From Candidatus Gottesmanbacteria bacterium RIFCSPLOWO2_01_FULL_43_11b (GTDB taxonomy: Bacteria; Patescibacteriota; Microgenomatia; UBA10105; UBA927), in assembly GCA_001780985.1 (NCBI GenBank), contig MFJV01000001.1, positions 913,609 through 977,608 on the forward strand: DNA of 64,000 bases, given 5' to 3'. Every line of letters starts with the position of its first letter. The first letter of the stretch is position 1. Of this stretch, positions 5,633-57,148 are shown piece by piece. Below the pieces are notes generated by a model. It was not told the origin of the DNA, ran no database searches, and saw nothing but the letters and a program-made list of their open reading frames with translations. Position numbers and translations under genes: made by a program.

Positions 5633-8609
5633 ACAACACTGGGAGGAAATTGGGACGTTATTTTTGCTGGCATTTATCCCTCTCTACCCAAAACTTCCTT
5701 TATTTGACATTGTGCAAACATGGGTATACATACGGCTCGATGATTTTGTCGTATTACTCGTTGTTTTAGGGTTCTTATTAAAACTTTACAGGAGAAAATA
5801 TGTCCCCGATACTCCCTTAACAATCCCGATATTCATGTATTGGGCAGTAGGACTCGTATCTATAGCCTGGTCACTTGCATTCATAGGCCCCAAACTTTTA
5901 GGGTATTTTCCACAACTCGTTATTCTCCATTACCTCCGCCGTATTGAGTATATGATCGTATTTTTCCTGGCTTTAGTCGGCATGGGAAGCATCAAGTATA
6001 TACGTAAGTATCTTTTTGTATTTGCCATCACTCTATGTATCGTATCGCTCTATGGAATTGGCCAGCGGTACATGAGACTTCCGGCATTTTTGACCATGAA
6101 CGAGGAGTTTGCCAAAGGCACGCCCCTTATTCTTTCACCTACATCACGGATTACCTCAACATTTGCAGGCCACTATGATTTGGCAATGTATTTAGCATTT
6201 TCTGTAACACTATTTGCAAGCCTTCTCTTTTCTTTGCGGAGGGTTCTTTCAAAAGTTGTAGTTATTCTCCTCTGTGGTTTAGCAACGCTTGTTTTATTTT
6301 TGACGCAATCAAGGGTTTCTCTTTTTGCTCTTGCTTCCGGTGTTATCTTAGTTTTATGGTGGCATAATCAAAAAAAATGGATACTACCAGCAGTAGTATT
6401 GGTGCTTCTTGCCGTACCTTTCGTTCCGGGCCTCTCCGATCGTTTTGCAAAAACATTCAGAGATAAACCGGTTATTTATGATATTCGAGCAGGTGCGCCG
6501 ATTGGTGCCGCGAATATTTCAGATGACGGGCAAGTGACCATTGAGCAGTCAGCATCACCTGCTTTGGAGAATTTACCGATAGGATCAGGATTTATCCGTG
6601 CCCCGGGAGCTACGCGAATTCCGTTGATTTCCTCCTTTGCAGTGGGAGAACTTCGCGGTTCCCCAGATTATCCGTTCGGTCAAACCCCACCGGGCTTGGG
6701 TGAAGAGATGCAAATGGCGATGGAACGGGGTCAATTGTATCTTTCAATAAATTCACCGCTTAAAGCAACAGACGGGGAGGTCGCAAGCATGTCAGGGAGG
6801 TTTTATCTTGACCGTGCACTCCTCTATGACATTTCCTTTACTACACGTTTCCAAGGACAATGGCCAAGAGCATGGGAAGCATTTGGTCGCAATATTTTCT
6901 TCGGAAGCGGGTATTCAGTATTATCAGTTGCTGCAGACAGCGATTACCTGCGGGCGTTGGGGGAGACGGGACTTCTCGGACTGGGTAGTTTTCTATTTAT
7001 TCTTCTTATCTTTTTTATCTACACCCGTACTGCATTACCAAATGCTTCACCTTTGGTTCGCGCGATGACAATTGGCGTAAATGGGGGACTTGTCGGTCTC
7101 CTTATTACCGCGTCTCTTCTTGATGTTTTTGAAGCGTCCAAGATGGCGTATGTTTTTTGGCTCACTGTGGGGGCAACAATTGCAGGATTAGGGATTACCT
7201 ATAAGAAACAATTTAATCTTTGGAAACATGCCAGAGAAATTATTTCCCATCCGATTGTATTTATTATCCTTGTGGGGCTATTAGTACCGATTGTCTATGC
7301 AGGGGTAAATAGATTTTATTTTGTCGCTGATGATTTTACGTGGCTCCGGTGGGCCGGGGAGGCGAAACTGAGCGATCTTTCACGATACTTTCTCGACTCA
7401 ACAGGATTTTTCTACCGGCCGTTGACCAAATTATATTTTTATTTTGCGTCAATGGTATTTTGGCTAAAACCTGAAGGTTACCACAGTGTCAATCTCGTTT
7501 TGCACTTTGTTGGAACTGTGCTTGCCTATCTTATTGTCAGGCGACTTAAAAACACGATAGCAGCTATTCTGACAGCTTTATTTTTTCTTGTTGCCAGCAT
7601 TCACCATGAGAACGTTATTTGGATATCAGGAGTAAGCAGTTTAGCCGGAAGCGTGTTTGCGCTCCTCTCTCTTTATCTATGGATACTGCGTAGACCGGTA
7701 TTTAGTTTGACGTTTCTTATAACGAGCATGTTATTTTATGAGGAAATGATGTTTGTTCCACTCATACTTACCTCATACAGCTGGATTTTTTGGCCAAAAA
7801 AATCCCGAGTTGTCTCAACACTTCCGGCTCTCACAGTCCCGCTGTATTGGTGGCTTCGTTCTATGGCTCATGCCCTTTCACCAGGCGGAAGTTACGGAAT
7901 AAATCTTGCAGCGTTGCCATTTAATGCAGTTGGAAATATTGTCGGATACGTAGTCGTAACCATCATCGGGGCTTCAATGCTTGTTTGGTACGAATGGATG
8001 CGCGGGTTTATGAGAAATGAGCAACTTATCGCCGCACTTACCGTCACTATTGCACTTCTTGTATTCCTTTACTATCGCAAAAAGATACAGCTTTCAAAAC
8101 CCTCTCTCTTTTTCGTGATTTTTACCTGTATTGCGTTACTTCCTGCATTGGGGCTTGGAAATATTGCAGAGCGGTATGGATATCTTGCTTCAGTTGGCAT
8201 AAGTTTTCTTTTTGTGTCATTTGTTTTGTGGATGTTTCAACGCAGAAAAGTTATTGCAGTAGCCCTTTTTACATTAATTTTTGGGGCAAATTATTTGCAA
8301 CTTCAAAACTACATAACAGAGTGGCAACAAACAGGGAAAGTATCAGAGCGAATCCATTATGAACTGCGCAGAATGTACTATCCGATTGAACCGAATACTC
8401 ACTTTGTTGTTGCCAATGTGCCTACAAGAATTGGCCGTGCCTGGTTATTTCCTGTAGGATTAGAAGATGCTGCCTACCATGTGTTTTATGATTCGACGAT
8501 GAAACTTGATGTTGTGGGGAGTGCAGAAGATGCTCTTTCAGTAAAGGGAGCAAAAGCACTCACCATAGTTGATGATAAAGAATATCCAATAAGAGAATTA
8601 TATGAATAA
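5607..8609 (+). CDS. 1000-aa polytopic membrane protein: O-antigen ligase (WaaL/Wzy_C)-like domain fused to GT-C/PMT-like domain
   Basis: More than 20 predicted TM helices; N-half resembles the O-antigen-ligase family with a large periplasmic loop; C-half has GT-C-like helices and a soluble C-terminal domain. Confidence 0.55.
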   Translation: MQKLFGSLKQHWEEIGTLFLLAFIPLYPKLPLFDIVQTWVYIRLDDFVVLLVVLGFLLKLYRRKYVPDTPLTIPIFMYWAVGLVSIAWSLAFIGPKLLGYFPQLVILHYLRRIEYMIVFFLALVGMGSIKYIRKYLFVFAITLCIVSLYGIGQRYMRLPAFLTMNEEFAKGTPLILSPTSRITSTFAGHYDLAMYLAFSVTLFASLLFSLRRVLSKVVVILLCGLATLVLFLTQSRVSLFALASGVILVLWWHNQKKWILPAVVLVLLAVPFVPGLSDRFAKTFRDKPVIYDIRAGAPIGAANISDDGQVTIEQSASPALENLPIGSGFIRAPGATRIPLISSFAVGELRGSPDYPFGQTPPGLGEEMQMAMERGQLYLSINSPLKATDGEVASMSGRFYLDRALLYDISFTTRFQGQWPRAWEAFGRNIFFGSGYSVLSVAADSDYLRALGETGLLGLGSFLFILLIFFIYTRTALPNASPLVRAMTIGVNGGLVGLLITASLLDVFEASKMAYVFWLTVGATIAGLGITYKKQFNLWKHAREIISHPIVFIILVGLLVPIVYAGVNRFYFVADDFTWLRWAGEAKLSDLSRYFLDSTGFFYRPLTKLYFYFASMVFWLKPEGYHSVNLVLHFVGTVLAYLIVRRLKNTIAAILTALFFLVASIHHENVIWISGVSSLAGSVFALLSLYLWILRRPVFSLTFLITSMLFYEEMMFVPLILTSYSWIFWPKKSRVVSTLPALTVPLYWWLRSMAHALSPGGSYGINLAALPFNAVGNIVGYVVVTIIGASMLVWYEWMRGFMRNEQLIAALTVTIALLVFLYYRKKIQLSKPSLFFVIFTCIALLPALGLGNIAERYGYLASVGISFLFVSFVLWMFQRRKVIAVALFTLIFGANYLQLQNYITEWQQTGKVSERIHYELRRMYYPIEPNTHFVVANVPTRIGRAWLFPVGLEDAAYHVFYDSTMKLDVVGSAEDALSVKGAKALTIVDDKEYPIRELYE

Positions 8610-18515: not shown

Positions 18516-19766
18516 ATGGTAGCACTTGATGCTGTTGTTTCACTTGCAAAACGAAGAGGATTTATTTATCCAGGAAGTGAGATTTACGGCGGATTAACAG
18601 GCTTTTGGGACTACGGACCACATGGCGCTGAACTTAAACGCAACCTCAAAAACGAATGGTGGAAGGCAATGGTATATGGCCGTGACGATGTTGTAGGACT
18701 TGATGCGGCAATTATCATGAATCCGAAAGTATGGGAAGCCTCAGGCCACACAAAAGCATTTGCCGATCCACTTATCGAATGTAAAGTATGTCATAAACGA
18801 TTTCGAGCGGATAATAAAGACATACTTAGTGCACATGAAAAAGAACACAAAGAAACTGTTTCGTGGACAGAAGCTAAACAATTTAATCTACTTACTGAAG
18901 TATATCTGGGTGTAACAGAACCAAAAGATAAAGCATACCTTCGCGGAGAAATAACACAAGGAGTATTTGTTAATTTTGCTAACGTCGTTGCTTCCTCCAG
19001 GGTGAAAATTCCATTCGGTATTGCTCAAATAGGGAAAGCATTCAGAAATGAAATAACTCCAGGAAACTTTACCTACAGAAGCAGGGAATTTGAACAGATG
19101 GAATTGGAGTATTTCGTAAAACCCGGAGAAGATAAATCGTTTGATTACTGGAAAAAGGAACGAATGAAATGGTATGTGTCCTTGGGGATGGATCAAAAAC
19201 ACCTGCGATTTCGTGATCATGAGGAGCATGAACGGGCTCACTACGCACGGTTTGCCACAGATATTGAGTATGAAGCGCCATTCGGGTGGAGTGAATTCGA
19301 GGGAATACATCACCGCGGGGATTTTGATTTAAAAAATCATAAGATTACCTATGAAGACTATACGCCATGGGTAATAGAAACCTCCGGGGGCGTGGATCGG
19401 GCAGCCCTCTTTTTTCTCCTTGAGGCATATCACGAAGAAGACAAGCGCGTCATCTTAAAACTTCACCCGCTCCTTGCGCCAATTAAGGTTGCTGTATTTC
19501 CGCTCGTTGCTAATAAACCACAACTGGTTGAGAAAGCGCAGAGTATTTATAGAGAACTCAAAAAGAATCTCGTTGTTTCCTGGGATGACCGGGGAAATAT
19601 AGGGAAGAGGTATCTTGCCCAGGATGAAATTGGAACTCCATGGTGTGTAACCATTGATTATGATACTCTAGAAAATGACACGGTAACCGTGCGTGATAGG
19701 GATACAACAAAACAGGAGCGAGTGAACGTGAGTAAGCTCGCTTCATACTTTTCTGAAAAACTATGA
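18516..19766 (+). CDS. glyQS: glycine--tRNA ligase (dimeric class II type)
   Basis: RRGFIYPGSEIYGGLTGFWDYGPHG N-terminal motif of GlyRS. Confidence 0.85.
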   Translation: MVALDAVVSLAKRRGFIYPGSEIYGGLTGFWDYGPHGAELKRNLKNEWWKAMVYGRDDVVGLDAAIIMNPKVWEASGHTKAFADPLIECKVCHKRFRADNKDILSAHEKEHKETVSWTEAKQFNLLTEVYLGVTEPKDKAYLRGEITQGVFVNFANVVASSRVKIPFGIAQIGKAFRNEITPGNFTYRSREFEQMELEYFVKPGEDKSFDYWKKERMKWYVSLGMDQKHLRFRDHEEHERAHYARFATDIEYEAPFGWSEFEGIHHRGDFDLKNHKITYEDYTPWVIETSGGVDRAALFFLLEAYHEEDKRVILKLHPLLAPIKVAVFPLVANKPQLVEKAQSIYRELKKNLVVSWDDRGNIGKRYLAQDEIGTPWCVTIDYDTLENDTVTVRDRDTTKQERVNVSKLASYFSEKL

Positions 19767-20215
19767 ATAAAAAACTGCTCTATGCAATTTTAGGTATACT
19801 CCTCGTTATCTCAGGATTTGTTATTTTTAAGGCAATTACATCAAAGCCAGCAGAAGTTGTTGAAGAGGAACCAGTTGAGGTCTTACCGGAAGTTGATGCA
19901 TCAGTTATCGTCGACGTCACCAAAAGTCGGTCAAAAGATAATTCAGTAGTTCTTTCCATAGATGGATTGGGAGGAAAATATACGTCAATCACGTATGAAA
20001 TAAGTTACGATACCCAGGGAGTAGTCCAGGGAGTGACTAGCCAGCCGTTGAATATAAGCGGAAAAGATTCATTTACCCGCGAGGATATATATCTTGGAAC
20101 GTGCTCGAGGAATGTCTGCAGACCGCATTTAGGGGTTAAAAAAGTTTCCGTTGTTATCCAGTTTACCGACACATCAGGCTCCCGCAGCCGATTCTCCAAA
20201 GATTTTGACCTATAA
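19763..20215 (+). CDS. membrane-anchored hypothetical protein
   Basis: N-terminal TM/signal anchor; beta-rich soluble part; ATGA overlap with glyQS. Confidence 0.45.
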   Translation: MNKKLLYAILGILLVISGFVIFKAITSKPAEVVEEEPVEVLPEVDASVIVDVTKSRSKDNSVVLSIDGLGGKYTSITYEISYDTQGVVQGVTSQPLNISGKDSFTREDIYLGTCSRNVCRPHLGVKKVSVVIQFTDTSGSRSRFSKDFDL

Positions 20216-20216
20216 A

Positions 20217-20930
20217 TTATCTTGCAGATGCAGGAAGCTGTATTGGTTTTTGTGATTCTTGAAGCAATACGTTATCTACTTGTAATTTAAATGCCGGAGC
20301 TACACGACTCCTTGCATATTTATCCGGATCTCGAAAATCTGGATTAGGGATTATCCAATGTCGATCAAATTTTTCGTGTTTTAAGAATTTCATTAGAGAA
20401 TTCGTAGGATCTACTTTCAAGATTTCTAGAAATTTTACCCATGCGTCAATGGGATGAATTTGAAGACAAAGAACAGATGCTGCAGAAGTTCTTCCACTAG
20501 GTATGCCCTTAGGCGCATATATCGCAGCCCTTTCCCAACTGATGTTGCCAGCCATAACAGCAGTGCTGGTATCATTTCTGTGATCATTATAGTAGAACCC
20601 ATAAAGATGATAAGGTTGTGGCGTTGACTCAGTTGCCATGTGGCTTAAACGAGACGGTAAGATGTCTGTAAGTATATATGTTATGTCGTATTCTGTTGAA
20701 TAATTTGGGTAGCCCTGCTTAAAATGAGGTGTTTGAATGAATCGTGGACCCATTTGAAGACATTCTCCTTGAAAAGCGCCATACGAGACAGCAACGGTAT
20801 TTTTTACTGTTTTACCAATAATATCGGCGCTTCTTGCGCTTTCGTTTTTATTTCCCTGTAAGTCATCTTTCGCATCTAGATTAGTCATGTGTCGACAATT
20901 ATAACAAATTTGATTCCGACACTTTATCAC
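20217..20930 (-). CDS. hypothetical protein (237 aa; probable start at internal Met near 20888)
   Basis: Long ORF on the strand opposite all neighbours; no competing plus-strand ORF; no confident family assignment. Confidence 0.45.
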   Translation of the reverse strand: MIKCRNQICYNCRHMTNLDAKDDLQGNKNESARSADIIGKTVKNTVAVSYGAFQGECLQMGPRFIQTPHFKQGYPNYSTEYDITYILTDILPSRLSHMATESTPQPYHLYGFYYNDHRNDTSTAVMAGNISWERAAIYAPKGIPSGRTSAASVLCLQIHPIDAWVKFLEILKVDPTNSLMKFLKHEKFDRHWIIPNPDFRDPDKYARSRVAPAFKLQVDNVLLQESQKPIQLPASAR

Positions 20931-20999
20931 TTTTTATCACTTCGCAGATGGAATTGCTTTGCACAATGGTCTCCAAAGACTTCGACCTCTAATCCCGAC

Positions 21000-21050
21000 G
21001 TGGCGTACCTGCCTGCCGGCAGGCAGGTCTGTTCCACATCGGATGTGGAA
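21000..21050. repeat. composite palindromic repeat: GTGGCGTACCTG + 20-nt palindrome CCTGCCTGCCGGCAGGCAGG + TTCCACATCGGATGTGGAA
   Basis: The outer parts match 25607-25637 contiguously; the inner 20-nt palindrome matches 50899-50918. Confidence 0.8.
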
Positions 21051-21123
21051 ATAGCTTTGCACATCGGGTATTTTACCTCAGTAAAACTTGACAACTTTAA
21101 GTACCAAGAGTACTATCGTCGCC

Positions 21124-21540
21124 ATGAAACGAGAAATTGATCCATTGCATCATACATTTTTCAAATCCCGTTTATCTTCTTACAAATCTCCACTTCCTCG
21201 ACAAAATCTCTTATTTAATGTAAGAAGTTATCATTCGGGAGAAATGAGGATTTCCCCAGAAAAAAGTAGTACTAATAAAGTGCTTATTGTACGGATGGAA
21301 GAAGTTGAATATTTAGAATCAAAATTTCAAATCTCACCTTATATAATTACTGATCCGTATCTACAAGTAAGATTAGAAACATCTCCTAATGAGTTACTAG
21401 TAGGGCAAAAACCCAGACCATCTGGGTATTTTGAGGATACTGAAGAACATAGAAAGTTGCTTGCTGATGGAAATTTTCAGGAAGAGCAACCTCGACTTAT
21501 TCTACTTTTTCACACAAGTCTTCGTCAAACACTTGAATAG
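21124..21540 (+). CDS. hypothetical protein, paralogue A1 (MKREIDP...FFKS family)
   Basis: Protein-level paralogue of the 21937 gene, with conserved frame and synonymous third-position changes; shared upstream element gtaNtatNNgNcgccATGaaacgaga. Confidence 0.55.
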   Translation: MKREIDPLHHTFFKSRLSSYKSPLPRQNLLFNVRSYHSGEMRISPEKSSTNKVLIVRMEEVEYLESKFQISPYIITDPYLQVRLETSPNELLVGQKPRPSGYFEDTEEHRKLLADGNFQEEQPRLILLFHTSLRQTLE

Positions 21541-21578
21541 TTGACTATTCCGACATATTTATTTAAGATCGGCCTATT

Positions 21579-21893
21579 ATGACAACCAGAATTGAGGCAA
21601 ACGGGGAAACATTGATCATCCACAATAAGTATAAAAGAACTATTTTGGGTAAGACTGATCCGTTTCTATTTGTTTGGACGAGAGACATGAAGACAGGTTT
21701 AAAGTCGCTCTTCGGAGCAAGTTTTAGAAAAAAAGATAATGATTATACCGTGATAATGGATGGAAATACTCTGACACCTACGGAAATAGAAGATGCAGTT
21801 ACGTTCACAATTGGCGGCAAAAAGTTGGAAATTTTAGACGAAACAAAAAAACCAATCTACACCGCCTTCTGGTCGGAAACCGGTCTTGGTTAA
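21579..21893 (+). CDS. hypothetical small protein (104 aa)
   Basis: ORF lying between the two paralogues; beta-rich and hydrophilic. Confidence 0.4.
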   Translation: MTTRIEANGETLIIHNKYKRTILGKTDPFLFVWTRDMKTGLKSLFGASFRKKDNDYTVIMDGNTLTPTEIEDAVTFTIGGKKLEILDETKKPIYTAFWSETGLG

Positions 21894-21936
21894 TGATATT
21901 TGACAAACCATAAGAAAAGAGCGTAGTATTAGCGCC

Positions 21937-22320
21937 ATGAAACGAGAGTTTGATCCAACACAACAGACCTTTTTTAAATCTCCTCGGCCCCATACCGGAC
22001 TTCTTTCTCGCGTTCGTTCATATCACCCCGGAGTGTATAACATGGAAGGTCATCCACCATTAAAGATTCTTGTTCTCGGCGCAGCAGAAGTAAAGTATCT
22101 CAAAGAAAAGGTCGGAACAATCCCAGTAACTGAGATCACTGATCCAAACACGCAAGTATGGTTTAAGAACCGTCGGGACGAGGGGACTACGACACTTTCT
22201 GAGAAACCGATTGGATTCGTTCAGGACACAGAAGGTGCGAGAATGGATTTAAAAAAAGGCAAGTTTAAGGAAAAAAAACCGGAACTTTCTTTGGTTCCTG
22301 ACAAAAACTTCAATTACTAA
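21937..22320 (+). CDS. hypothetical protein, paralogue A2 (MKREFDP...FFKS family)
   Basis: Paralogue of the 21124 gene (MKREFDPTQQTFFKS...SYHPG...KILVLGAAEVKYLKEKV). Confidence 0.55.
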   Translation: MKREFDPTQQTFFKSPRPHTGLLSRVRSYHPGVYNMEGHPPLKILVLGAAEVKYLKEKVGTIPVTEITDPNTQVWFKNRRDEGTTTLSEKPIGFVQDTEGARMDLKKGKFKEKKPELSLVPDKNFNY

Positions 22321-22391
22321 CCTACGGGTAGCGTGTAATCTTCGAATCTAACTCAACCTATAGTTTCGTGAAACATGCTTTGTGAAACCCC

Positions 22392-22420
22392 TTGACAAAC
22401 CGTGAAAAATGGGTAACTAT
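22392..22420 (+). promoter_or_regulatory. candidate sigma70-type promoter of the dcw operon (TTGACA, 17 nt, AACTAT)
   Basis: TTGACA at 22392-22397, a 17-nt spacer, then the -10-like AACTAT at 22415-22420; 35 nt upstream of the mraZ ATG. Confidence 0.4.
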
Positions 22421-22443
22421 GGATATTAGTGGGAATAAGTGGT
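22408..22443 (+). promoter_or_regulatory. MraZ-box array: four TGG(G) repeats at 10-nt phasing
   Basis: aaTGGGtaactaTGGatattagTGGGaataagTGGtag; this resembles the direct TGGGN repeats to which MraZ binds in its own promoter. Confidence 0.5.
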
Positions 22444-22454
22444 AGACTTCGGGC

Positions 22455-25595: not shown

Positions 25596-25600
25596 AATTT

Positions 25601-25637
25601 CCCGATGTGGCATACCTGTTCCACATCGGATGTGGAA
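25601..25637. repeat. repeat copy CCCGATGTGGCATACCTG-TTCCACATCGGATGTGGAA, without the inner palindrome
   Basis: Near-identical to the 21000 copy minus the 20-nt insert; contains two mutually exclusive 9-bp stems. Confidence 0.8.
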
Positions 25638-25643
25638 TTTATT
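25619..25643 (+). terminator. candidate intrinsic terminator hairpin (TTCCACATC-G-GATGTGGAA followed by TTTATT)
   Basis: 9-bp inverted repeat plus a T-rich tract 24 nt after the ftsI stop; an alternative upstream pairing (25602-25629) is also possible. Confidence 0.4.
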
Positions 25644-26022
25644 AACGACTTTCCTTTACTTTTACCTCAAAACAGGATGATTTATTTAGAGTTATGATCG
25701 TATCGTGAGAAGTTATTTTTTCCACGAAATCACCACTAGCAATACCTTCAGTATTAACCCCACTACAGACACTTGGTGCTAACTGACAACGCAAACAGGT
25801 ATTAAAAGCTTCAGCGGCTCTTAACCTTTTCGCGCTAACCCTGAAAAAAGAGCTATCATCAAGTTTGTGAAAGGAAGCTCCACTGAATTCATTTAACTTG
25901 TGCGATCGTATTATTAGTTTTTCTATAATCATAAACTCTCCAAGCAAATATAGTGAGGAAGTATAGTAGGAGAGAGAGGAATTGTCAAGCCTATAGTGTT
26001 TTTTGGTTAAATTGGGGCTTAT

Positions 26023-26031
26023 TGGTATAAT
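26023..26031 (+). promoter_or_regulatory. extended -10 promoter element TGgTATAAT upstream of murE
   Basis: The TGN-TATAAT element ends 7 nt before the murE ATG at 26038, which implies a leaderless or very short-leader transcript. Confidence 0.4.
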
Positions 26032-26037
26032 AAACAC

Positions 26038-50659: not shown

Positions 50660-50941
50660 ATGGCTCATATTAAAGCAGGCGGAACCACTCGAGCAAATAA
50701 AGATTCAGCCTCCAAGAGACTTGGAGTTAAAATTTATGGTGGACAACGCGCAATTGCTGGAAATATCATTGTTCGTCAAAAGGGAACAAAAGTATACCCG
50801 GGAGACGGGGTGAGTATTGGGAGAGATTTTACAATTTTTGCATTGACTTCTGGTTTAGTTGAATTTTTTACCAAAAGAGGGAAACAATACGTTTCGGTCC
50901 TGCCTGCCGGCAGGCAGGTCCTGCCCGCCAAGAGCCAATAA
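50660..50941 (+). CDS. rpmA: 50S ribosomal protein L27 with a 7-aa in-frame C-terminal insertion encoded by a palindromic repeat
   Basis: [17 protein letters not shown]-terminus; the C-terminus [16 protein letters not shown] contains the 21-nt repeat at 50896-50921. Confidence 0.85.
50899..50918. repeat. 20-nt perfect palindrome CCTGCCTGCCGGCAGGCAGG (copy 2, inside the rpmA 3' end)
   Basis: Identical to 21008-21027; flanked by CCTG direct repeats (tCCTG ... tCCTG). Confidence 0.8.
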
Positions 50942-52439: not shown

Positions 52440-52705
52440 TGTATTACGTGTATATTTTAAAAAGTTTGACTGACAAGAAATTGTATTCCGGATATACTGA
52501 TAATTTGAAAAGGCGTTTTCGAGAGCATAATAATGGAGAAGTGGAGAGTACGAGGAATAGAAAACCTTTTACGTTGGTATATTACGAAGCGTATCAGCAT
52601 CAACAAGATGCTACCGCAAGAGAAAAGTTCTTTAAAACACAGTGGGGAAGGAATTATTTGAAAAAGGTTTTAAAAAATTATTGGGCGCGCATAGCTCAGG
52701 GGTAG
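52439..52705 (+). CDS. GIY-YIG family nuclease (small stand-alone)
   Basis: YVYILKS...KLYSGYTDNLKRRFREHN is the classic GIY-YIG motif; GTG start; its 3' end overlaps tRNA-Val by 21 nt. Confidence 0.75.
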   Translation: MYYVYILKSLTDKKLYSGYTDNLKRRFREHNNGEVESTRNRKPFTLVYYEAYQHQQDATAREKFFKTQWGRNYLKKVLKNYWARIAQG

Positions 52706-55561: not shown

Positions 55562-55594
55562 AATTGACGCTATTATACTTTAGCCCACCAGTAT

Positions 55595-55948
55595 TTGACA
55601 AATTATTGTTTCCTTGACAAAATAGCGCATATGCCAAATATTGAAGCGCTTTATGACGGAGTTGCACATACCGTTGATTGTGTGAATGTGAAGATCAAAA
55701 ATGGAGGACGGGTTGTCATCCTTGAAGTGCCCAAAGGATCTGTTTGGGGATTACGTGACCTTATCCGGCACGAATCCTATGGTATGCAAATAACTCCGGA
55801 GAGCGAAGGGGATGCAACTACTGAAGATGTTATTTCATTGGATGCAAGGCGGACACCGATAGCCGGACCCATGAAGATTTTGAAAAAGGATCAAGACGGA
55901 CGCCGTGTAGCAATAAAAGTCCGCCGCTTCCGCCCGTTCCCAATATGA
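55595..55948 (+). CDS. hypothetical protein; its C-terminal 10 codons are duplicated downstream of the next gene
   Basis: ORF; the C-terminus IKVRRFRPFPI* is re-encoded as IKVRRFHPFPAT* at 56684-56722. Confidence 0.4.
   Translation: MTNYCFLDKIAHMPNIEALYDGVAHTVDCVNVKIKNGGRVVILEVPKGSVWGLRDLIRHESYGMQITPESEGDATTEDVISLDARRTPIAGPMKILKKDQDGRRVAIKVRRFRPFPI
55912..55941 (+). repeat. 30-nt direct repeat (left copy) AATAAAAGTCCGCCGCTTCCGCCCGTTCCC
   Basis: 27/30 identity with 56683-56713; brackets the lipoprotein gene. Confidence 0.75.
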
Positions 55949-56649
55949 GACGACCCGGTCCTGAAATTATTATACTGAGCAGTTTATTCCTTGGTTCGTG
56001 TAATCCTGTTCGAGCAACACAACAACCTGAAATTATTGATACACCCTCTAGGTTTACTCCCGCTCTGCCGATTCCTTCAATGACCCCTAAGCCAGAACAA
56101 ATCCCCTCAGCCGGTATTCATCAAATAGAACCAGGAGAAATTTTAAATTTGGAGCATTTTACGTTTGAAAATCAGATGAGAGGGTATTCGGTTCGGATAG
56201 TCACCCTCCAACTTAACGAGGTGTCAAAACGGTATGACGTACCATTAGATGTGGGACAAGATACAACTATAATCCTCTCACCAGAAATTTTTGAAGGTGA
56301 GAATGGAAGCGCCGTACGTTTTTTCGACGAAGAGAATGGCAAACAACGCATCGAAATTTCAGGCGGACTGTTTGAACAAGTTGTTTCGTTAATTACGGGT
56401 AGAGTTCCAAGAGACTTAAGAGATCAAACGCTTTTATCGGTTATGTTAAGTGAAAAAATGATTTTTGCCCTTGCTCGCATTGCTGAGCAACGGGGACAAC
56501 TTCCTGAGGGTTCATCTCAAATTATTGAAAGCCAGTACATAGAAGATATACTAAATTTGGAAGCAAAATTAGTGGCAGGGATGCAGATTTTGGGAAATCC
56601 TCTTCCTGAACCTGCCGAACCTCCCCCCGGCAACCCTCCCTCTGCTTAA
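55945..56649 (+). CDS. lipoprotein of unknown function
   Basis: Signal peptide with the lipobox LFLGSC; Pro-rich C-terminus; flanked by 30-nt direct repeats. Confidence 0.55.
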   Translation: MRRPGPEIIILSSLFLGSCNPVRATQQPEIIDTPSRFTPALPIPSMTPKPEQIPSAGIHQIEPGEILNLEHFTFENQMRGYSVRIVTLQLNEVSKRYDVPLDVGQDTTIILSPEIFEGENGSAVRFFDEENGKQRIEISGGLFEQVVSLITGRVPRDLRDQTLLSVMLSEKMIFALARIAEQRGQLPEGSSQIIESQYIEDILNLEAKLVAGMQILGNPLPEPAEPPPGNPPSA

Positions 56650-56682
56650 CATTAGAAGTATGCGAACCTTCTCTGTCTTTCT

Positions 56683-56713
56683 AATAAAAGTCCGCCGCTT
56701 CCACCCTTTTCCC
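56683..56713 (+). repeat. 30-nt direct repeat (right copy)
   Basis: aataaaagtccgccgcttccacccttttccc. Confidence 0.75.
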
Positions 56714-56714
56714 G

Positions 56715-57128
56715 CTACTTAGCCTGCGGGACGTAGGTAATTCCCACTCCTTTAATTGTTTTAACACTCTCCGCGAGGGTTGGATCAACAGATTTTAATT
56801 TATTTCGCAATTGAGTTATGATTCCTGTGGTAAGCTTCAGGACTTTGAATGCTTCATATTCATTTTCGGGGAGTGGGGTTGACGGAAAGAGTAATCGAAA
56901 TACATCTGTGCGTGAGAGAATTTCATCGGGATGGGCTATTAAATGCGAGAAGAGCTTACTCCGTTGTTTTGAAAGTCGTACCCTTGATTCTCCATTTGAG
57001 AGCATACGTTTTCTGGGCGCATAATAAATGCTTTTCTTTCCATTTTGGTTTAGTTGAATAAGACCTTCCCCCTCCGGCGCTTTCATAAATTTATTATAGC
57101 AGAGCGCATATTGATAACAATAATTCAA
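56715..57128 (-). CDS. winged-helix DNA-binding protein (OmpR/PhoB C-terminal-type trans_reg_C domain, stand-alone)
   Basis: RVRLSKQRSKLFSHLIAHPDEILSRTDVF...KLTTGIITQLRNKLK...IKGVGITYV matches the OmpR-type effector domain; the start may be an internal Met. Confidence 0.55.
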   Translation of the reverse strand: MNYCYQYALCYNKFMKAPEGEGLIQLNQNGKKSIYYAPRKRMLSNGESRVRLSKQRSKLFSHLIAHPDEILSRTDVFRLLFPSTPLPENEYEAFKVLKLTTGIITQLRNKLKSVDPTLAESVKTIKGVGITYVPQAK

Positions 57129-57148
57129 ATTCCTATAATGCCATTAGG

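Follow-up and report, generated by a model that had tools for sequence, protein, structure and literature searches.

Four adjacent genes of hypothetical proteins, A3A79_05175 to A3A79_05190, are found in Candidatus Gottesmanbacteria bacterium RIFCSPLOWO2_01_FULL_43, a Microgenomates member of the Candidate Phyla Radiation (CPR), within the 64,000-nucleotide stretch of DNA analysed here and referred to as the window. The question they raise is whether they form one functional module, as had been proposed in a preliminary description made from the sequence alone, or came together at the same site independently of each other. In the public gene calls of the contig they are preceded, on the plus strand, by genes for a DUF4012 protein, RecO, glycyl-tRNA synthetase (GlyRS) and a 150-residue protein; then follow the four genes, coding for 223 residues on the minus strand and for 138, 104 and 127 residues on the plus strand, and, again on the plus strand, those for MraZ, RsmH, FtsL, a penicillin-binding protein and a Mur ligase. 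This order agrees with the placement originally given, between glyS and the division and cell wall (dcw) operon, and the four open reading frames (ORFs) were all re-found at the positions first reported, where the public calls also have them. The reading to which the evidence leads is that the region is a composite, lineage-specific islet of orphan genes and not a co-inherited functional module; we consider it probable, if by no means certain.

The minus-strand gene (20217-20888) encodes a member of a very rare family and looks like an inserted cassette. It had been taken as a 237-residue ORF; the frame does extend to a GTG at 20930, which gives that length, but the annotated ATG at 20888, for 223 residues, is the better start, since an extended -10 element, TGTTATAAT (20898-20906), ends 9 nt upstream of it. 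The region upstream of the gene (20889-20969, minus strand), as read from the sequence, has no Shine-Dalgarno sequence and lies inside the insert defined below. An exhaustive HMMER search over 1.84 billion representatives found three real homologues of the protein, P0007, P0009 and P0010, and a word-indexed protein search returned only the query itself. P0007 (240 residues, E 3e-23, from locus L085) is the only full-length homologue; the motifs GAFQGECLQFG, GGNISWE and KHxKFxxSW are common to the family. A further candidate, P0008, a 775-residue FG-GAP repeat protein matching in five weak stretches (E 3e-7), was rejected as repeat-driven, no FG-GAP domain being found by Pfam in the 223-residue protein. 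Two copies of the family look decayed. P0009 carries an internal deletion, by which the central third of the protein is gone, and the gene of locus L086 (5895-6561) is split by a one-base frameshift near TCTATTTGG, with the N-terminal FGTFQGEAMRYG in the other frame; the latter may reflect either a pseudogene or a mistake of assembly in a run of T.

The first and the last of the plus-strand genes, A (21124-21540, 138 residues) and B (21937-22320, 127 residues), are paralogous, as had been noticed: their products are 39% identical over 129 aligned positions (BLASTP, E 5e-19). A profile built on the two paralogues found two further members of the family, here called MKRE, namely P0005, 66% identical to B, and P0006 (56-58%); a word-indexed protein search with A returned A only. 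Kinship between the MKRE and the 223-residue families was rejected on comparison. Scans of metagenome contigs and viral contigs with the profiles of both families, and of viral contigs with the 104-residue protein, gave no confirmed relatives, and there is no link of these proteins to phages.

If the four genes were inherited as a module, the two families should be met together elsewhere, and a check for their co-occurrence had been suggested; outside this strain they never co-occur. The members of the 223-residue family are found between a 499-residue unknown gene and an M23 peptidase gene in L085, after hrcA-grpE-dnaK-dnaJ and before a PIN pair and nusA in L086, and after a SpoU methylase gene in L087-89, and no homologue of MKRE or of the 104-residue protein lies near any of them (tblastn). 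Conversely, the order in relative L083 is recO, glyS, a 152-residue membrane protein gene, two tiny membrane-protein genes, an MKRE gene and the mraZ promoter, with no gene of the 223-residue family. In L084 an MKRE gene directly precedes mraZ, whose product shares its first 94 residues with that of the window. Relatives L003 and L004 (GlyRS about 71% identical, mraZ on the contig) have nothing between the membrane-protein gene and mraZ, which follows after about 145 nt. Judging from these gene orders, B would be a resident gene of a small sub-lineage, the A, 104-residue and 223-residue genes would be later additions, and the two families would be historically independent.

Base composition divides the four genes in the same region. 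The G+C content at third codon positions (GC3) of the 223-residue gene is 0.27 (z -2.0), where the window mean is 0.37. The related gene of L085 has 0.32, against 0.47-0.61 in flanking genes, and that of L086 has 0.35, against 0.41-0.58 locally, so that the family has the lowest or near-lowest local GC3 in all three genomes. A is an AT-rich, divergent copy (GC3 0.187, z -3.8). A deviation from the flanking DNA, which was to be looked for across the region, is seen at the third positions of these two genes: B (GC3 0.383) and the 104-residue gene, by its third positions, are native-like.

The 223-residue gene has, in addition, an insertion scar of its own. The preceding gene (19763-20215, plus strand), last of the DUF4012-recO-glyS unit, encodes the 150-residue protein, which is membrane-anchored at its N-terminus (residue 5 reaches a hydropathy of 2.42). 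The 3' end of this gene served as the insertion target. Its last 7 codons and TAA stop (20193-20215, plus strand; ...SKDFDL and stop) form the first copy of a 23-nt direct repeat, the second copy of which (20970-20992, plus strand) is a relic of the same gene end, reading VSKDFDL and stop in frame. The copies match at 20 of 23 positions and are 777 nt apart, and all three differences (T/C, T/C and A/C) are synonymous third-position changes. They bracket exactly the 223-residue gene and its 81-nt upstream region. Repeat pairs of this kind, 100-1500 nt apart, number three in the window, against a mean of 0.05 in 20 Markov-simulated windows.

A similar arrangement surrounds the P0007 gene of L085, where a 39-nt repeat (5941-5979 and 6728-6766, 35 of 39 positions matching, 787 nt apart) consists of the last 11 codons and stop of the upstream 499-residue gene. 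At both loci the stop codon of the inserted gene lies 1-4 nt from one repeat copy, while its orientation to the target gene is antiparallel in the window and parallel in L085. When 1.39 Mb were scanned for repeats having the stop codon of a long ORF in copy 1, two cases were found in the window and one in L085; the only two remaining cases were unrelated, due to paralogues or tandem arrays. Misassembly was dismissed as a source of the repeats, as the junctions recur in independent assemblies from several samples and the copies are not identical. A diversity-generating retroelement was likewise discarded: there is no reverse transcriptase among the called genes, the repeats are of 23 nt instead of about 100 nt, and the differences are not adenine-specific. 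A second, weak repeat (20953-70 and 21051-68, 14 of 18 positions) surrounds the relic and the hairpin described below; it may be due to chance and was not used.

Taken together, the patchy distribution, the foreign composition, the target-derived repeats and the decay of some copies point to a transient, horizontally acquired 223-residue gene. The description of the region as a laterally acquired accessory locus holds in part, given the lack of the islet in L003 and L004, the insertion signature and low GC3 of the 223-residue gene and the very low GC3 of A.

The next point is how such a segment may have been inserted. No transposase, integrase or recombinase domain was found in the insert with Pfam, NCBIfam, PHROGs or PADLOC, no recombinase is present among the called genes beside it, and no terminal inverted repeats were seen on reading its ends by eye. 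Insertion with long target duplication, reportedly described by Nobusato and co-workers in 2000, appears by comparison to be the closest described process. In it, segments without mobility genes lie between target-derived repeats, which may overlap gene 3' ends (Furuta, Abe and Kobayashi 2010, PMC2853133). The GC content of such inserts tends to be low, and naturally competent or transformable bacteria account for most cases; the published ones have restriction-modification cargo and repeats from 30 bp to more than 400 bp (PMC2853133). The inserts of the window and of L085 are similarly bracketed by direct repeats of an otherwise single-copy target, and the 223-residue insert has no transposase or integrase, a lower GC and repeats overlapping the 3' end of the host gene. 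They differ from the published cases (restriction-modification cargo, repeats longer than 30 bp; PMC2853133) in carrying one orphan gene, which is not recognisable as a restriction-modification gene, and their repeats have a length of 23 nt (window) or 39 nt (L085).

Other known elements fit in part. As with integrase islands placed at gene 3' ends, the repeat holds the last codons and the stop, so that the host gene stays intact, and the slight difference between the window copies is reminiscent of attL and attR; unlike such islands, the element has no integrase or recombinase domain, is only about 0.75 kb long, and has homologous cargo at unrelated targets. An insertion sequence or DNA transposon would have a transposase, terminal inverted repeats and a short duplication of fixed length, while here there is no transposase, no inverted repeats were seen, and the duplication measures 23 nt in one case and 39 nt in the other.

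The 223-residue protein might itself provide the mobility, as a nuclease or recombinase of a new kind, encoded by an autonomous minimal element about 0.78 kb long which targets the last codons of host genes. This would account for the fact that two homologues, in different genomes and at unrelated targets, both lie within target-derived repeats at nearly equal spacing (777 and 787 nt), with the gene stop next to one copy, and the patchy distribution, decaying copies and low GC3 would agree with it. We regard it as unlikely, however, because an unrelated gene of the window is bracketed in the same way and the mechanism need not be encoded by the cargo; in addition, terminal inverted repeats are missing, the repeat length varies, and the alignment of four sequences has no invariant acidic catalytic residues.

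The unrelated gene (55945-56649, in the region 55908-56714) encodes an orphan protein of 234 residues with a lipoprotein-like N-terminus ending in LGSC and no Pfam match, and was rejected as a relative of the 223-residue family on comparison. The repeats around it (55912-55942 and 56683-56713) match at 27 of 31 positions and are 771 nt apart: copy 1 is the 3' end of the upstream 105-residue gene (IKVRRFRPFPI and stop), and copy 2 (IKVRRFHPFPAT and stop) is placed shortly ahead of the stop codon of a winged-helix regulator gene that runs convergently. Of the four core differences, three are synonymous and at third positions. In other contigs, no empty site for this gene was found. Since a gene of another family is bracketed likewise, a route provided by the host, or by uptake and recombination, is favoured over an enzyme encoded by the cargo.

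A broader possibility is that the 223-residue family marks a minimal mobile unit of CPR bacteria not described before: a cassette with one gene, about 0.78 kb long, which enters a host gene within its last 7-12 codons, in either orientation, and restores the end of that gene in the form of a direct repeat of 23-39 nt. We hold this tentatively, as rather unlikely. It could take the form of a protein that is a new nuclease or recombinase, or that of a general route of gene gain in CPR by DNA uptake and short-homology recombination; in the latter form, the bracketed orphan at 55.9-56.7 kb would be another product of the route.

The insertion also bears on the supposed regulatory region of the islet. 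The nested palindromes reported in the divergent intergenic region are present, and form a compound hairpin (20993-21050, plus strand) directly after the relic stop, with an outer 9-bp stem (20995-21003 and 21034-21042) and a perfect 22-nt palindrome (21007-21028) in its loop. The layout is TCCCGACGTGGCGTACC, the 22-nt palindrome and TGTTCCACATCGGATGTGGAA, and the region folds at -28.8 kcal/mol (z -2.3). Both parts have copies elsewhere in the window. The outer hairpin without the nested palindrome (TCCCGATGTGGCATACCTGTTCCACATCGGATGTGGAA, 9-bp stem) recurs after the ftsI stop, at about 25599-25640, and an exact copy of the 22-nt palindrome, CCTGCCTGCCGGCAGGCAGGTC, is present at 50899-50922, within the 3' end of the rpmA reading frame, which it extends. 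These recurrences indicate that the palindromes are elements similar to terminators or to repetitive extragenic palindromic (REP) sequences, and not a divergent operator, so that the notion of a repeat-rich divergent promoter is not sustained. The hairpin is probably the former end of the glyS unit, an old terminator or REP-like element stranded by the insertion. A search of the whole window with Rfam (gathering thresholds) and ARAGORN found only a tRNA-Val at 52685 and no match in the intergenic region.

Each of the plus-strand genes has, by promoter scan, a putative promoter of its own. That of A (21088-21116, plus strand) consists of TTGACA, 17 nt and TACTAT, and ends 7 nt before the ATG; that of the 104-residue gene (21541-21569, plus strand) of TTGACT, 17 nt and TAAGAT, ending 9 nt before the ATG; that of B (21900-21929, plus strand) of TTGACA, 18 nt and TAGTAT, ending 7 nt before the ATG and conserved at about 97% in L084. 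The geometry of A and B, from promoter to ATG, is shared with the MKRE genes of L083 and L084. No Shine-Dalgarno sequence precedes any of the four genes, which may accordingly be transcribed separately, as leaderless mRNAs, from sigma-70-type promoters. Promoters of this type, 5-10 nt before the ATG and without Shine-Dalgarno, are found at many first genes of transcription units in the window, murE among them, with examples at 26004-26037, 55562-55601 (minus strand) and 57111-57148, which would make them a trait of the genome and not of the islet.

The opposite view is that the four genes form one accessory cassette, for toxin and immunity, anti-phage defence, or a regulator with its effectors, in which the palindromes would be a shared operator and the 223-residue protein would act on or with the small proteins. 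Their adjacency and divergent orientation, the absence of the region from relatives, and the nature of the products, all small, soluble and fast-evolving, speak for it, and so does the strong variation of B between strains with about 96% identical mraZ, since variation of this kind is common in conflict genes. On the other side are the lack of co-occurrence elsewhere, a separate promoter for each gene, unequal base composition, palindromes that copy hairpins found after stop codons at ftsI and rpmA, and the insertion scar of the 223-residue gene. Database searches gave the cassette nothing either. As had been anticipated, and apart from noise, none of the four proteins has a match at E<=1 in Pfam, NCBIfam, PHROGs or PADLOC, so that no toxin or antitoxin domain was found in these databases or in PDB sequences, and no PADLOC model of defence-system proteins corresponds to any of the four. 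The profiles of both families have no match to PDB sequences at E<=10, and structure and fold searches revealed no recognisable fold. The absence of transmembrane segments was also borne out, the maximum Kyte-Doolittle hydropathy over 19 residues being at most 1.27 in all four. Type II toxin-antitoxin systems and small defence cassettes similarly have small, fast-evolving, lineage-restricted, AT-rich genes without housekeeping homologues; unlike type II systems, the genes studied here have no operon pairing and no conserved partner in L083-L089, and they have no known toxin or antitoxin fold or defence-protein match. We thus judge a single cassette to be quite unlikely, while for the individual roles put forward, as toxin and immunity, defence, or regulator and effector, the results lend no support and are no evidence either way.

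The history of the MKRE genes can be followed further. The duplication of about 20 nt reported upstream of A and B is part of a larger, 75-nt direct repeat with 73% identity (21093-21167 and 21906-21980), which corresponds to the promoter -10, a 7-nt spacer and the first 15 codons. The encoded 15-residue N-terminal motif, MKRE[IF]D..., ...TFFK[ST], is kept through synonymous changes and is therefore conserved at the protein level. Between A and B the nonsynonymous divergence (dN) is 0.63 and the synonymous one (dS) is saturated, with dN/dS about 0.2 (Nei-Gojobori); in the family as a whole, dN/dS is 0.19-0.41 over six pairwise comparisons. A is more distant from the group of B, L084 and L083 (38-42% identity) than these are from each other (56-66%), and may either be old and drifting or come from an AT-richer relative. 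An apparent frameshift is seen in the MKRE gene of L083 (3230-3290), just before the conserved C-terminal VPDK.F.Y motif.

B is the orthologue of genes directly upstream of mraZ in L083 and L084, which is the normal position of this small, soluble, fast-evolving protein in the sub-lineage. Compared with the gene of L084 (52-435), B (21937-22320) is a mosaic in which some blocks are identical and others only about 50% so: codons 51-60 are nucleotide-identical, and codons 71-90 have about 50% nucleotide identity. The proteins are 66% identical, with dS 0.91 and dN 0.24, against dS 0.21 and dN 0.005 for the adjacent mraZ, which is about 96% identical. This suggests recombination, or strong local diversification or hypervariability; it is the only feature in keeping with a conflict-type role, yet does not amount to evidence of it. 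Two variant proteins with unrelated C-termini, P0015 and P0018, were considered as structural variants of A and B and discarded. They derive from two short public scaffolds, L107 and L108, which match the window and then switch abruptly to unrelated DNA (similar to RNA polymerase beta in L107), and which are taken to be chimeric assemblies giving false variant proteins in 90% clusters.

The position of B leads to another explanation, by which the MKRE proteins would serve the division and cell-wall cluster as accessory factors particular to the lineage, for instance by modulating MraZ or dcw expression; their genes would be kept beside mraZ for this function, and the duplication in the window strain would be an event of dosage or specialisation. 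In all three assemblies that carry an MKRE gene, the mraZ promoter follows it directly; purifying selection acts on the genes, their N- and C-terminal motifs are conserved, and the -35 region of the B promoter resembles that of mraZ (TTGACAAACC). Yet the closest relatives with an intact dcw cluster have no MKRE gene, and the three carriers are closely related, so that the shared position may be plain inheritance. No fold or domain ties the protein to division, in a structure model with a predicted local distance difference test (pLDDT) score of 41. On balance, we hold this role to be unlikely.

For the 104-residue gene (21579-21893, plus strand), the searches brought up no relatives apart from nearly identical copies belonging to the same population. 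Its identification as a truncated MKRE paralogue, considered for a shared TDP..VW motif, was rejected (hhalign probability 0.6%). With no homologue beyond its own population, a low G+C content at first codon positions and a low codon adaptation (above only 3 of 59 reference genes), it is the ORF for which one would most readily suspect a chance reading frame in AT-rich spacer, an explanation that could be applied to some of the other genes as well. It is nonetheless taken as real, because a promoter of its own, of the same leaderless geometry, lies directly upstream, because it fits exactly between A and B, and because its 3' end is conserved in L084; it is also called as a gene in independent assemblies. 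The other three genes have homologues under purifying selection, which excludes chance for them, and overall we find this explanation very improbable.

The composite islet may then have been built up in layers, in the gap that runs from the terminator of the DUF4012-recO-glyS-membrane-protein unit to the promoter of mraZ. The first layer would be the resident MKRE gene B, beside mraZ. In the second, the divergent paralogue A, bringing its own copy of the promoter and of the N-terminal motif, and then the unrelated 104-residue orphan would have been added upstream of B. The third would be a single-gene segment of about 0.75 kb, independently acquired, which carried the 223-residue gene and was inserted into the final 23 nt of the gene for the membrane protein, duplicating the gene end with no recognisable transposase or integrase involved. 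The old stop codon and the hairpin would have been left as a relic, now within what appears as a divergent promoter region.

Several observations weigh against this history. No true empty site was found among contigs with identical flanking proteins: all contigs with an identical membrane protein, and all of the same strain, also carry the 223-residue gene; L083, L003 and L004 lack that gene after the membrane-protein gene, but are distant, their flanking proteins being only about 62-71% identical. The window repeat is short (23 nt), the gene of L086 has no flanking repeat, and the downstream flank of L087 is too short to judge. The absence of co-occurrence rests on few cases, with only three genomes per family, and the L084 contig starts too near the MKRE gene to show any 223-residue gene upstream. 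That three genomes have the MKRE gene beside mraZ could have a functional and not a historical reason. Finally, the copies of the two window repeats show 7 single-base differences, of which 6 are synonymous and at third positions (binomial p about 0.007); adding L085 gives 7 of 11 (p about 0.04). This bias does not fit a simple duplication in place followed by neutral decay of the relic, and requires a donor allele or a later allelic replacement. More speculatively, the relic copy may come from a functional allele of another lineage, through Campbell-type integration of a donor-derived circle or through later allelic replacement.

The content of the site varies among relatives in a way that resembles the minimal mobile elements of Neisseria, which are variable gene islets between conserved flanking genes. 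Here, the flanks formed by the glyS unit and mraZ hold nothing in L003 and L004, two small membrane-protein genes and an MKRE gene in L083, and four genes in the window. The compared genomes are, however, different species and not strains.

The borders of the islet are themselves conserved. On the left, the 150-residue protein has an orthologue after glyS in L083 (152 residues, 62% identical), and membrane-protein genes fill the same position in L003, L004 and L005. On the right, the mraZ promoter and putative operator (22392-22454, plus strand; TTGACA at 22392-97), as read from the sequence, are kept in L083 and L084. Downstream of the promoter are four TGG(G/A/T) boxes with an exact 10-nt period (22410, 22420, 22430 and 22440), also conserved in the two relatives, which look like an operator for MraZ autoregulation. 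Around glyS, two features of relatives were observed. In L005 the gene is bracketed by a 23-nt direct repeat (247-269 and 1616-1638, 20 of 23 positions matching), which looks like promoter or leader sequence reused before the downstream membrane-protein gene, and the GlyRS of L083 (413-2032) contains an insertion of about 120 residues (539 residues, against 416).

The 223-residue gene faces the three plus-strand genes, as stated at the outset, but is not the sole sizeable reverse-strand gene in 20 kb, since a gene of 96 residues is called on the minus strand at 25642-25932. This orphan, between ftsI and murE (25642-26037), has no Pfam match and the lowest codon adaptation in the window; in L003 the gene after ftsI follows without a gap, that is, without the orphan. 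It is another small lineage-specific insertion, within the dcw cluster.

CPR genomes are small and largely syntenic, yet rich in orphan genes of unclear origin, and a patchwork islet of such genes at an operon boundary is ordinary for them. The literature on CPR and direct repeats, and on Gottesmanbacteria, yielded nothing about the genes described here. For the module first proposed, these results have chiefly a negative value, in that neighbouring genes, a change of strand and palindromes do not turn the locus into a module for defence or toxicity. For the origin of orphan genes, the locus is a concrete, datable example of an arrival, by a single-gene segment at the end of a housekeeping operon, whose scar is still readable as a duplicated gene end and a stranded terminator hairpin. 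The same scar is found at a homologous gene in another genome and at an unrelated orphan in the window. If it proves general, it would extend insertion with long target duplication beyond restriction-modification genes, and would provide a sequence test for recent gene gain in uncultivated bacteria, namely the repetition of the stop-codon region of a neighbour beyond an orphan gene.

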